DNA from: Coprobacillaceae bacterium
GTDB lineage: Bacteria > Bacillota_I > Bacilli_A > Erysipelotrichales > Coprobacillaceae
Length of the DNA: 32,000 nucleotides
Direction: 5' to 3'
Assembly (NCBI GenBank): GCA_963675515.1
Contig: OY776328.1
Span: 2,310,001 to 2,342,000 of the forward strand
The notes beneath the pieces were generated by a model. The model was not told the origin of the DNA, did no database searches, and was given only the letters and a program-made list of their open reading frames with translations. Both the position numbers and the translations under genes were made by a program. Below are positions 7,864 through 11,926 of the stretch, one piece after another; positions within the stretch are counted from its first letter, which is position 1; every line of letters starts with the position of its first letter.

Positions 7864-8744
7864 CTAATCCAGGTCAGCTCCGTTTGATTCGATAACTTTT
7901 TTGTACCAGTAGAACGAATCTTTCTTGCTTCTTGCCATGGTTCCGGTTCCATCGTCATGTTTATCAACATAGATGAAACCATAACGTTTGCGCATTTCTC
8001 CGGTTCCAGCCGAAACCAAGTCGATGCAACCCCAAGTAGTGTAACCAATCAGGTCAACCCCGTTCTTGTAAGCCTGTTCCATTTCGGCGATATGCATTCT
8101 GAAATAATCAATTCGGTATGGATCATGGATCGAACCATCTTCTTCAACCGTATCGAACGCACCCAAACCGTTTTCCACAACCATCAACGGCAATTCGTAG
8201 CGGTCATAGATCATTTCCAGGTAGTAGCGCAGACCGATTGGATCAAGTGCCCAACCCCAGTCCGAGTACTGCAAGTATTCGTTGCGGGCTCCAGCTGAGA
8301 AGTTACCCGAAACCTTGTCGTCAGTTTCGTGAGTTGTCACGATTGAAGACATGTAATAAGAGAATGTGTACATGTCGACTGTCCCTTCAGCGAGGTCTTT
8401 CAAGTCGGCATCAGTTATGTCCAGCTTGACGTCGTGTTCATCCCACAGGCGTTTGGCGAAAGTTGGATATTTTCCCTTGCATTGGACATCACCGCAATAG
8501 AATATGCTTTTTTCCCACATATGGCGGTTGGCGATGATGTCTTTTGGATCGCATGTTCCCGGATAGAACGTGATCCCGCAGATCATGCAGCCGATCATGT
8601 TGTTCTCATCGACTTCGTGTCCGATCTTTACAGCTCGGGCACTGGCCACGAACTGATGGTGAAGATGTTGATAAGCCTGTTGATGTTCCTCTGCCCCGGC
8701 ACTGTTGCCAAAAAGATTAAGCATCATGACCGTGTTGTTGATCT
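7864..8744 (-). CDS. GH1 6-phospho-beta-glucosidase A, exon 2 (C-terminal 293 codons)
   Basis: After the predicted 3' splice site it reads (E)[12 protein letters not shown]...MVVENGLG (nucleophile ENG motif)...[24 protein letters not shown]. The frame is open from 8744. Confidence 0.9.
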
Positions 8745-8793
8745 ATAGCGATAGGTAAGACTTTGATGTTATCTCCATCTTTTCCCCCGCTCC

Positions 8794-8827
8794 ACACCGT
8801 GCATGCGACTTTCACCGCACACGGCGT
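8794..8827 (-). ncRNA. group II intron domain V (copy 1)
   Basis: Minus strand ACGCCGUGUGCGGUGAAAGUCGCAUGCACGGUGU folds as a 9-bp lower stem, a 2-nt bulge (AU), a 5-bp upper stem and a GAAA tetraloop. It is collinear with yeast ai5-gamma domain V as I recall it. Confidence 0.8.
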
Positions 8828-8843
8828 TCCATCTAATTCTTCT

Positions 8844-10638
8844 TTAATTTATTTCAGTTAAATTACATCTCTTACGCAACATGTTCAGTTTTTTAAGCTG
8901 TGTTTTGTTTAGATTGAACTTTTTCAATAGCGTTTTTTCAGTTTCCTGATTATTACCGTGTATTAGTTTATGTACTTCTTTGTGAATAATGATTAGATTG
9001 TCAAAATTATCGGTTCCACCATCTCCAACGGAAACAATGTGATGACAGTGTATTTCCTCGGCCGTTAGAAACAACTGGGTGATTCCACAACGCCCTTTTT
9101 GCATTGAATACTTTGAGATTGTGTTATCCCGATATTCCACACTTCCGTTTCCAATTGGCAGTTCCAGCAACCTCTTCATAACTGAGGTTACATTATTTTC
9201 TAATCGTTTATAAACTAATTTGCGCCCCTCTTGGGTATAGTTGCATATGTTTTGATTGAAGTTTGTCTTCAATTTCCACTGCGTATCCGCCAGTGGAAAC
9301 AATGAAATGGCTCCAATCGTGAATGTGCGATAGTTATTCTTAAATAACTTCTTATACAACGGTGGGGGACTCCTGGGTACTTCATATTTAGCTATTGGTT
9401 TCAATCGGTTGTACAAGGTCTTGAGCGTCTGATGGTAAACATTTCTAAAATCTATATTTACATGTGTTGCAGCTTCATAATAATTTCTTATCCCCAGTAT
9501 ATATGAATTATAATTGTGGATATTCTTGGAAATTGTATGACGCTGTATCTCGATAACTCTTTTCCTTATTTCCGCTTTGATTTTTATTTTACTTTTCGCC
9601 GATACAAAGGTGTTCACAACGTACTTCTTGCGCTTTGGTACCAGCTTCATTTCAAACCCCAAATAGTCCGACCTACGTTTCCTTAGATTGGTAATCTTTG
9701 ACTTTTCAGGTGAAACATTAAGTTTAAGTTCATTCTTCAGATATTCCTTGACCGCATGATATATCCTTACCGCATTTTTATAACTGCAAGTGAAGACTCG
9801 TGCGTCATCGGCATACCTTACCGCATACATTTCTTTTAGATTGGTTTTCTTGAGTACTCTATACTTATATGGACATTTATAATCAGCATTGAATGTTTCC
9901 CATTGATTGCTTATCCACCAGTCCAGATCGTTCAACACTACGTTTGAAAGTAATGGCGAAAGCACTCCTGCCCTGTGGTGTCCCACAGTGTGGGACACCT
10001 ACTCCTTTGATGGGAGCTTTCAGCATTCTACTTATAATCGTCAGTACCTGATTATCCTTGATGCCGATATTCCAAAGTTGTTTGATTAACTTGGTATGAT
10101 TGACATTGTCAAAGAACGATTCGATATCCAAATCAACAACATAGTGATTGTGCGTCATATTGGCGATATGGCAACATCTTGACAAAGCATTATGGGTTGA
10201 GCGATTGGCTCTAAATCCATATGAATGCTTATGAAACTTCGCTTCGCAGATTGGTTCAAGTATCTGTTTGAACATCTGTTGAATCAGTCTGTCATGCATC
10301 GTTGGTATTCCCAATGGTCGTAATTTTCCATTAGGTTTAGGTATTTCTACTCTTCTTACCGTTTTTGGTTTATAGTCCAATAGCGATAGTCTAATATCCT
10401 GAATAAATTTCTCAACGTTTTCTATCTTGTAATCATCAATAGTAAGGCCGTCAGTGCCTTTAGTGTGACTTCCGGTGTTGCTTTTGATGTTTCGATAGGC
10501 GAGGAGTATATTGTTCCTGGATATCACCAGATTATAAAGATCTATCCCGTAAGTATCATTGTTTAAACTCATTTGATACAACCAGTCAAAAGTTTCCTGC
10601 ATACTGTAATATTCGTTGTTTCGTAATCCCGTGCTCAC
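8844..10638 (-). pseudogene. intron-encoded protein (RT, X/maturase, D and HNH endonuclease domains); frame broken by a +1 shift near 9969
   Basis: ORF 10638-9883 carries RT blocks 0-4 (...RPLGIPTMHDRLIQ..., ...GTPQG). ORF 9998-8844 continues with GVLSPLLSNVVLNDLD, YADD, the X domain and the HNH motif (HCHHIVSVGDGGTDNFDNLIIIHKEVHKLIH). Skipping one nucleotide gives a continuous 597-aa protein. Confidence 0.85.
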
Positions 10639-11334
10639 CGATGGATTATTCCTTTCGTTTAGAACAATTGTTTCCCATCATCTTATCAGACCCTGTGAGC
10701 TTCATTTAACTGTAACTGATTTTTAAAGAACCAGACTTGGGGCTATCCCTCCACCATTTTTCGTGGCTTCATCGGTACTGTGCCCCTACTTTCACGAGAA
10801 TAAAAACACTTCGTTTACACTTATAGTTACCGTCCCGATAACAGTCGTTTAATAGACGTTTCTCGCTTACAACGTTCCAAATATTCTAGCTTTACATTTA
10901 TCCTTAGGTTCCTGCTATGAGCCTGATGAATTATACCCTCATTGTCGAGTATCTCGAATTTCATATCAACGATTCTTACTTTTCGATATTCATCGTTGCG
11001 CACGCAACATGCCACCTTTCAATAGCACGACTTTCTAGACCCGTACATTCGCAGTTTCGTCAGTCCTTACACGGACATTCTCACCATAGATAATTTATAG
11101 CGTCCCGGCCTATCCTTTACCATATGATATATCACTTAGGTATTGTTCAGCCGACTTCACCTAGCTTCACACATAATTTTACTGTTATAACCTCATGCGT
11201 GTAGGAGTATCAGACTACTTGTTTCAGGCTAACATGACAGCCATCATTCCAAGTATTGAATATTCAGTTGTGATTTTCCTATTGGAAAATCCTCCCATTT
11301 CATGCCTAGGCACTTATAGGGAAACGTTTCGCAC

Positions 11335-11926
11335 CGTTGAAAGTCAGCCAGTATTTCACCAGTCCCTTGAACTCCTCGAAGCAGGTACGGGCGAATCTTT
11401 CATAGAAGTCGATAAGCTTGCGGTTGTTCCATCCGCCGTAGTTCTCTTCCAGGTATAGCGGCGTGTCGAAATGCCAGATGCTTACCAACGGTTCGATTCC
11501 GTATTTTTTACATTCCTTGAAAACGTTGCGGTAGAATTCAATCCCCTTTTGATTCGGAGTTGTTTCGTCGCCGTTAGGATAGATTCTTGACCAAGAAATC
11601 GACATCCGGAAGATCTTGAAGCCCATCTCGGCAAACAAGGCGATATCTTCCTTGTAATGATGATAGAAATCAATGGCGTCATGGTTTGGATAAAGCTCGT
11701 CTTCCAAAACCGCGTATTTGGCACCTTCAGGTATTTTGCTTCCATGGCCAAAACCAGGAACTTTCCCCGGTTTACCGTCTTTGTCAATAAAAGTGACATA
11801 ACGTGGTTCGTTTACCGATCCCCCGGTTGTCACGTCAGTCATTGCCGGACCGCGTCCGTCTACATTCCAGGCACCTTCAGCCTGATTGGCAGCGATCGCA
11901 CCGCCCCATAAGAATCCTTTTTTCAT
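11335..11926 (-). CDS. GH1 6-phospho-beta-glucosidase A, exon 1 (N-terminal 197 codons plus 1 nt)
   Basis: [20 protein letters not shown]...[12 protein letters not shown]...KYWLTFN, followed by the first nt (G) of the Glu codon. RBS is AAAGGAG. Confidence 0.9.

Follow-up and report, generated by a model that had tools for sequence, protein, structure and literature searches.

How can a group II intron persist inside the catalytic codon of a sugar hydrolase when the gene for its own protein is broken by a frameshift? The locus that raises this question lies in a 32,000-nucleotide (nt) stretch of a Coprobacillaceae bacterium (positions 2,310,001 to 2,342,000 of contig OY776328.1; hereafter the window), where an intron, copy A, interrupts the gene for a GH1 6-phospho-beta-glucosidase, GH1-A. 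Judged from comparative sequence evidence, copy A quite probably belongs to an active, retargeting intron family and was recently inserted at this locus, with an intron-encoded protein (IEP) that is laid out in two frames, conserved and needed.

An intron inside a catalytic codon

As a ribozyme, copy A is structurally conserved: its termini are correct, domains V and VI are present, and its exon-binding sites (EBS) are complementary to the GH1 exon (Table 1). It starts with GTGCG at 11334-11330 and closes with CGCTAT at 8745, and both the GUGYG and the AY end are present. The Rfam model of domains V and VI, RF00029, matches 8745-8829 over its full length with 61.6 bits (gathering score 40; E 5.7e-10). 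The domain VI helix is formed by AGCGGGGG and CCUaUCGCU, and its bulged A8752 sits 7 nt from the final intron base. Domains II and III lie outside the coverage of the covariance models used, the domain I-IV type model RF02004 among them, and constraint there was judged from the 5' 730 nt of copy A, which align end to end and without large gaps with relatives that have an intact IEP. The base 5' of EBS1, U10972, is a candidate delta opposite the first 3'-exon base, A, a pairing that would be expected of subclass IIA; it faces an A at the 4 distinct target sites (five copies) for which the 3' exon is available, with an EBS3 interaction as a possible alternative. About 60 nt around the IEP start (window 10592-10651, minus strand; intron positions 721-780) have no variable site in the family, as would be expected if this stretch were the domain IVa site for protein binding or translation control.

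Read without splicing, the minus-strand open reading frame (ORF) from 11926 encodes 197 GH1 N-terminal residues (...KYWLTFN), followed by nine foreign codons (GAKRFPISA) and a stop. Joining 11335 to 8744 gives TTC AAC G/AG ATC AAC (the slash marks the insertion site throughout), which reads F-N-E-I-N, and the two exons together make 592 + 881 = 1473 nt, with ...CTGACTTTCAACG/AGATCAACAAC as the predicted ligated junction. The intron is in phase 1, between the G and the AG of the acid/base Glu codon. The conceptually spliced protein of 490 amino acids (aa) matches Pfam GH1 (PF00232) over its full length (E 4e-122) and keeps both the NE acid/base Glu and the nucleophile motif VVENG. Its closest solved relative is E. 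coli BglA (2XHY, E 8e-157), with which it aligns across the junction (TFNEINN); the stretch VKYWMTFNEINN is one side of that alignment.

These results agree with the original prediction, which had been made from the sequence alone and in which every coordinate (termini, domains V and VI, exon lengths) was exact. It had described the intron ends, the 34-nt domain V, a bulged A 7 nt from the 3' end, the read-through of nine codons and the restored NE motif, and had named the RF00029 search and an alignment of the spliced protein to GH1 structures as checks. Since exon joining restores F-N-E-I-N and an intact enzyme, production of GH1-A must, as was then proposed and as far as reading frames can tell, depend on splicing; the enzyme would be obtainable only if the intron is spliced out.

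The boundaries are established, not merely predicted, because an empty site is available. An intron-less syntenic orthologue on a metagenomic contig (L086) encodes an uninterrupted protein of 490 aa (96% aa and 89% nt identity) in the same gene order as in the window (GH1, GH1, NadA, class-V aminotransferase), and its alignment with the window breaks exactly at 11335/8744. The position of the intron in the catalytic codon appears best explained by conservation of the target sequence and not by catalysis itself, because the conserved L-T-F-N-E motif supplies a conserved nucleotide string and other members of the family occupy unrelated conserved motifs, in another GH1 and in IS3 and IS66 transposases (Table 1).

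Table 1. Features of the interrupted GH1 genes, the intron copies and their surroundings. Positions are those of the window, except for L081, L082, L084 and L085, where they are those of the locus named. IBS, intron-binding site; RT, reverse transcriptase; PTS, phosphotransferase system.
Feature	Position	Strand	Remarks
GH1-A exon 1	11335..11926	-	592 nt; ends ...TGG CTG ACT TTC AAC G
Group II intron copy A	8745..11334	-	2590 nt, GUGCG...CGCUAU; Rfam, empty site, end-to-end alignment with intact-IEP relatives
IBS2 (UGACUU)	11341..11346	-	partner of EBS2; pairing covaries over five target sites
IBS1 (UCAACG)	11335..11340	-	partner of EBS1; pairing covaries over five target sites
Domain I segment	11094..11272	-	Rfam RF02004 (group-II-D1D4-5), full model, 109.8 bits, E 2.5e-23
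EBS2 (AAGUCG)	11028..11033	-	pairs with UGACUU, one G-U pair
EBS1 (CGUUGA)	10966..10971	-	pairs with UCAACG
IEP ORF1 (frame 0)	9883..10638	-	251 aa; GTG start, AAAGGAA 9 nt upstream; RT motifs 0-4 to PQG
Perfect hairpin GGUGUCCCAC-ACU-GUGGGACACC	9977..9999	-	10 bp; contains GUG 9996-9998, which opens ORF2
Shift site CAG-GGC-A-GGA	9966..9975	-	extra A at 9969
IEP ORF2 (+1 frame)	8844..9998	-	384 aa; GVLSPLL, YADD, thumb/X region, HNH
Domain V	8794..8827	-	34 nt; Rfam RF00029
Domain VI	8745..8791	-	bulged branch-point A at 8752; 3' end AU
GH1-A exon 2	7864..8744	-	881 nt including stop; starts AG ATC AAC; holds ENG nucleophile motif
GH1-B exon 1	30830..31418	-	589 nt; last 19 nt, TACTGGCTGACTTTCAACG, as in GH1-A exon 1
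Group II intron copy B	28240..30829	-	6 substitutions, no indels relative to copy A; identical frameshift
GH1-B exon 2	27377..28239	-	spliced product 483 aa, full-length GH1, NE and ENG motifs
Target of copies A and B			GH1; UGACUU UCAACG/A; EBS2 AAGUCG; EBS1 CGUUGA
Copy L081	4308-8397		different GH1, FYNRYK/EDIAL (R-Y-K/E-D), spliced 499 aa; CCGCU ACAAAG/A; EBS2 AGUGG; EBS1 CUUUGU
Copy L082	4497-7086		IS3-type transposase, HWYN/E; CUGGU ACAAUG/A; EBS2 ACCAG; EBS1 CGUUGU
Copy L084	3605-6143		IS66 transposase, DGYQAYD/; GGCAU AUGACA/; EBS2 AUGCU; EBS1 UGUCGU
Copy L085	31-2624		IS66 transposase, HCD/ET; UCCACU GCGACG/A; EBS2 AGUGGA; EBS1 CGUCGC
Tandem RpiR/SIS regulators	14606-15391, 15391-16146
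GH4 hydrolase	16194-17531
PTS EIICB	18039-19595

A frameshift shared by a mobile family

The original prediction had also placed an RT/X/HNH ORF in the intron. These domains are present after conceptual repair, but the IEP is not encoded by a single continuous ORF in domain IV; two overlapping ORFs are found instead, split by an extra A at 9969 that lies inside RT motif 4, between PQG and GxLSP. Past PQG, ORF1 continues into an unconserved tail of 28 codons. At this site the nearest introns with an intact IEP, used here as outgroups (two from Erysipelotrichales and one from Clostridium perfringens; 74-76% nt and 67-71% aa identity), read CCA CAR GGY GGN (P-Q-G-G), against CCA CAG GGC A GGA in the window. 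Conceptual removal of the A yields a protein of 585 aa from the ATG, or of 597 aa from a conserved upstream GTG. The 585-aa form matches Pfam RVT_1 (E 3e-41) and HNH (E 7e-6) and has VRYADD visible in its sequence, and the repaired IEP can be aligned with a solved group II RT/maturase as far as the thumb motif (7uim, residues 22-378) and with T.el4h over residues 33-561.

The extra A is common to the whole family as sampled, namely six full introns (A, B, L081, L082, L084 and L085) plus protein fragments. The four copies outside the window, with 94-96% nt identity, come from two ENA assemblies (ERZ21869602, the source of L081, and ERZ21878204) and two Logan runs (SRR23823845 and SRR11702756). 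The A is present, within an invariant GGC-A-GGA, in all six full-length members, from four or five independent assemblies, and in none of the three outgroups, while the 80 relatives kept from a scan of species-representative genomes all have a one-frame IEP. Among 5.8 billion proteins there was no intact IEP above 71% identity; the search gave only clusters of half proteins, a C-terminal one with 14 members and an N-terminal one with 6, from several assemblies that include two multi-megabase contigs. Neither the shift site nor the invariant ORF start turned up in JGI metagenomes (scanned with two patterns) or in IMG/VR, and a plasmid search gave only distant relatives, which matched at ~74% in the 5' part and 90% in domains V/VI and of which none lay in GH1.

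When the A is deleted, a stop-free ORF of 585 or 586 aa results in all six copies, and the sole indel in the coding region is an in-frame one of 3 nt. Pairwise ratios of replacement to silent substitution rates (dN/dS, Nei-Gojobori) are 0.05-0.18 for the N-terminal half and 0.09-0.15 for the C-terminal half, with dS up to 0.30, and the deficit of replacements is significant in both (binomial p 4e-7 to 3e-18). The frame of selection switches at the shift site: just 3' of it, changes are silent or exchange V and I in the +1 frame (G-V/I-L-S-P-L-L-S-N...) and are replacements in frame 0, and two copies have lost the ORF1 stop. A sliding window showed no significant excess of conservation at silent sites around the shift. 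Since all members share the extra A, parsimony dates it before the divergence of the family, and both halves would have been maintained by selection, each in its own frame, ever since. The conserved frameshift thus appears to be tolerated or decoded rather than lethal. The ribozyme is under constraint too, because its divergence within the family is about 0.03 against a dS of 0.14-0.26, 5- to 8-fold slower than silent sites; the fastest-evolving part is the EBS region (0.08-0.135).

The six copies occupy five distinct target sites, A and B sharing one (Table 1). EBS1 and EBS2 of every copy are complementary to its own 5' exon, and both pairings covary with the site. The comparison directly supports a role of these loops in recognising the exon, and indicates that each copy either reached its site through base-pairing or is adapted to pairing with it. 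At all 4 distinct target sites with a 3' exon available, the intron splits a Glu codon behind its first G. GH1 genes host three of the six recovered copies, and all targets (GH1, IS3, IS66) belong to multi-copy gene families; homing into conserved motifs of such families may be a strategy for having many sites available. The evidence from sites, frames and ribozyme suggests that the family stayed functional and mobile with its frameshift and did not decay.

Copy B, which the original prediction missed while getting the anatomy of locus A right, interrupts a second GH1 paralogue of the window, GH1-B, at the homologous F-N/E position. The two introns differ at 6 of 2590 nt, and duplication to the paralogous site is very recent; the GH1-A and GH1-B proteins are ~45% identical (by eye in the alignment). 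The predicted ligated junction of copy B is ...TTCAACG/AGGTCAACGCG. Co-conversion was considered for the 19 nt of 5' exon identical in both genes and set aside as unneeded, since IBS1, IBS2 and protein recognition would require the same stretch. On the source contig (2,881,239 bp) there are at least 4 copies of the intron, judged by distinct N-terminal ORFs.

Some copies do decay, unlike the six clean ones. On a 25,059-bp ENA contig, the C-terminal ORF has a further break into 111 + 262 aa (P0123 and P0126). Two fragments from the source contig read as rearranged or nested copies: P0277 has ...CGTPQGG followed by 21 unrelated residues, lacks the Arg that the extra A should produce, and could reflect either an insertion exactly at the shift site or a copy lacking the extra A; P0124 has a translation of domains V/VI fused to IEP codon ~440. 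One further locus (L083, 3390-5869 on a 37-kb contig of ENA ERZ21869602) was left out of the comparison as a possible mis-assembly or rearrangement. It holds intron positions 86-2565, 100% identical to copy A, between flanks of non-intron DNA, upstream a 5'-UTR-like (untranslated region) sequence after an RpiR gene and downstream the middle of a GH1 gene (...KKYGGFRNRK...KYWMTFNEINN). It would result either from short homologies that were wrongly joined in the metagenome or from a real rearrangement in which the first third of GH1 was replaced.

Possible decoding of the second frame

A course of events that would account for these observations is as follows. In an uncultured Erysipelotrichaceae bacterium, retrohoming would have brought the intron into a GH1 gene, on the sense strand, through pairing of EBS1, EBS2 and delta with UGACUU-UCAACG/A, a sequence that happens to encode the conserved L-T-F-N-E. 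A sister copy would then have entered the same sequence in the second GH1 paralogue, unless the two insertions took place in the opposite order. As a transcribed part of the GH1 mRNA, the intron would be bound by its IEP, however decoded, which would promote lariat formation at A8752; the exons would rejoin, the GAG codon for Glu would be restored and the ligated mRNA would give active enzyme. The RT/maturase/HNH protein would be specified by two overlapping frames, both halves being translated and needed. The lariat ribonucleoprotein would reverse-splice into DNA matching EBS1, EBS2 and delta, followed by HNH cleavage and target-primed reverse transcription, steps that are established for Ll.LtrB-type introns. 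Splicing in vivo, the order of the events and the decoding of the second frame are what we infer from these comparisons.

For the decoding itself we tentatively favor programmed +1 ribosomal frameshifting at CAG-GGC-A-GGA with a refolding hairpin, to which we give close to an even chance. A fraction of ribosomes would shift, aided by refolding of the hairpin behind the E site and by the A-site AGG, and so make a low dose of the full-length 597-aa protein; the predicted trans-frame peptide is GTPQG-GVLSPLLSN (...CGTPQGGVLSPLLSN). The hairpin is the longest perfect inverted repeat in the intron and dominates the local fold (-30.4 kcal/mol, z -3.4 against dinucleotide shuffles). Its z lies between -4.5 and -6 in all family members, against -0.05 to -1.3 in the outgroups, which have only an imperfect 7-of-9 version, and its stems are invariant in the family, the sole substitution being in the loop. 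The 3' end of the hairpin is 1 nt before the CAG of CAG-GGC-AGG, and it would abut the E site of a ribosome that has GGC and AGG in its P and A sites. Upstream hairpins beside the E site stimulate +1 shifts at an AGG-dependent site on yeast 80S ribosomes and at CUUUGA on E. coli 70S ribosomes (PMC6321510, PMC3639245), and the one used in the E. coli system mimics the internal Shine-Dalgarno (SD) duplex of prfB (PMC3639245, PMC6321510). It is because the geometry of hairpin and E site matches these reported stimulators that programmed +1 frameshifting is favored.

Several points weigh against this reading, some concerning the decoding and others the family as a whole. A P-site tRNA slipping from GGC to GCA would re-pair poorly, so that an out-of-frame-binding type of shift would be required. 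In host genes AGG is no rare codon (5.1 per 1000, near other Arg codons), and the IEP uses it 8 times; an argument from a "hungry" AGG codon was dropped, as AGG is as common as other Arg codons in host ORFs. A downstream stimulatory structure was not found beyond shuffled expectation. A family-specific SD-like AAAGGAG followed by the GUG that opens ORF2 makes separate initiation a live alternative. Six full introns are a small sample. Finally, the insertions are so recent that intact exons are uninformative on the continued function of GH1-A and GH1-B, and the host has several GH1 paralogues, so that loss of the two genes would be tolerable.

If ORF2 is started separately, the protein would come in two pieces that assemble into an active RT/maturase. 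ORF2 would start independently at GUG 9998 behind AAAGGAG, ORF1 would end in a junk tail, and the hairpin would gate the ORF2 start, opened only by ribosomes translating ORF1; the N-terminal peptides expected from ORF2 would be MSHTVGHHRAGV and MSHTVGHHRAGVLSPLL. This is the main rival, which we regard as unlikely, though well worth weighing, for AAAGGAG-UAG-GUG is found in all six family members and not in the outgroups (ATA/ATT in place of GTC), ORF2 is open from exactly GUG 9998, selection on both halves is explained equally well, and the ordinary frequency of AGG in the host weakens the frameshifting model. The spacer between the SD-like sequence and the GUG is, however, just 3 nt, and stable helices enclose both elements. 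Termination-reinitiation does not fit an ORF1 stop that is 116 nt downstream and differs from copy to copy. The break cuts through the middle of RT motif 4, which forms one contiguous structural element in solved group II RTs; a split group II RT is not known from elsewhere, and the open-access literature gave no precedent.

By the reasoning of the original prediction, a broken IEP would point to a dead insertion, in which the frameshift killed the IEP, splicing is inefficient, and GH1-A and GH1-B are fresh pseudogenes tolerated through the other GH1 paralogues. We reverse that conclusion because the frameshift is conserved across a mobile, selected family, and now hold a dead insertion to be improbable. 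That the frameshift is in a core RT motif would suit it, as would the recency of the insertions already mentioned, the intact GH1 next door in a region rich in sugar genes, and the clearly rearranged copies (P0124, P0277 and P0123/P0126); yet the frameshift is older than a radiation with dS up to 0.30, through which dN/dS stayed near 0.1 with no stops and only an in-frame indel, copies moved to five sites with matching EBS changes, and the ribozyme remained under a constraint 5- to 8-fold stronger than at silent sites. A non-autonomous family, spliced and mobilised in trans by the intact IEP of a related intron in the same genomes, seems less probable still. Trans-complementation would lift selection on the family's own codons, which is at odds with a dN/dS of ~0.1 in both halves, and no intact protein was closer than 71% although the collection includes proteins of the host contig. 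Bacterial introns that are ORF-less or defective are, it is true, usually accompanied by relatives that may supply the protein in trans (PMC4424553), and Erysipelotrichales do have related introns whose protein is intact, at 71% aa identity. Assemblies often contain erroneous single-base indels, and the IEP might really be one ORF; given that the same A is in both copies of the window and in the ERZ21869602, ERZ21878204, SRR23823845 and SRR11702756 loci, that the protein fragments P0123 and P0128 (start MGHHRAG) imply it, and that the site is not a homopolymer, such an artefact can for practical purposes be dismissed. The reading in which the two-frame IEP is conserved and serves an active family therefore stays the one we prefer.

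The surroundings of the two interrupted genes are rich in related functions. A third GH1 gene (12119-13471) is intact, and by our own reading of the alignment its equivalent sequence would mispair with EBS2. Window 12119-19595 is a sugar-utilisation island (Table 1), whose redundant genes could compensate if GH1-A and GH1-B were lost. GH1-B is the upstream gene of a cluster with a PTS EIIC (26044-27363) and a HAD hydrolase (25084-25896), and splicing of copy B may also affect expression of the genes downstream of GH1-B. Long antisense ORFs on the plus strand (6355-7233, 12257-13249 and 7957-8748) lie opposite the NadA and GH1 genes; they are most likely spurious, overlapping genes with clear homology on the other strand.

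Relation to known introns and recoding signals

The family runs counter to two expectations, that group II introns stay outside conserved genes and that they decay when the gene for their protein is broken. Conserved or housekeeping genes rarely hold bacterial group II introns, in line with what the original prediction had noted, and inactivated copies are common (PMC4424553, PMC2504315, PMC6003770). The open-access literature yielded no case of a GH1 or 6-phospho-beta-glucosidase gene with a group II intron, nor of recoding or frameshifting in a group II IEP. With either decoding, two sugar-hydrolase genes would be conditional on intron splicing. If +1 recoding is true, this would be the first recoding signal known from a group II intron and a natural bacterial +1 signal of an uncommon kind (upstream hairpin, no re-pairing, no stop). 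By setting the IEP dose, it would set intron mobility and the splicing-dependent output of two sugar-utilisation genes, a new form of self-limitation of a retroelement. If instead the protein is made in two pieces, it would be, to our knowledge, the first naturally split group II intron RT and relevant to engineering.

In its anatomy the intron resembles Ll.LtrB and its protein LtrA: GUGCG and AU ends, a 34-nt domain V and a bulged A in domain VI, pairing of EBS1 and EBS2 with the 5' exon, a U beside EBS1 opposite the first 3'-exon A, a domain IV IEP with RT motifs, YADD, thumb/X and HNH, and insertion in the sense strand of a gene. Unlike in Ll.LtrB, the IEP gene is split by a conserved +1 frameshift, and the host gene encodes a chromosomal metabolic enzyme in place of a plasmid relaxase. 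LtrA itself is a distant relative (E 2e-39, N-terminal region only).

The GH1 intron adds a new host gene to the known phenomenon of introns in conserved genes. Like the introns in Geobacillus kaustophilus recA, in polC, radC, mutS and uvrD of the B. cereus group and in cyanobacterial cases (PMC2504315, PMC4424553), it is an ORF-containing intron in a conserved gene whose expression would depend on splicing. It differs in that the hosts are GH1 sugar hydrolases, with insertions at two conserved motifs and, in one genome, in two paralogues. Related copies at different sites with matched EBS1 and EBS2 are also known for RmInt1 relatives and Thermosynechococcus introns (in part PMC4181065), whereas the present copies all carry a shared RT frameshift.

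As for the frameshift, the programmed +1 systems to which we compared it are E. coli prfB (CUU-UGA-C), yeast Ty1 (CUU-AGG-C) and Ty3 (GCG-AGU-U). Frameshift control in bacterial mobile elements is typically -1 (IS1, IS3) and not +1. With the +1 systems the intron shares an AGG behind a zero-frame codon, a stable duplex just upstream of the E site and conservation across a family; it differs from them in a P-site GGC without +1 re-pairing and in an A site that holds neither a stop nor a demonstrably rare codon.

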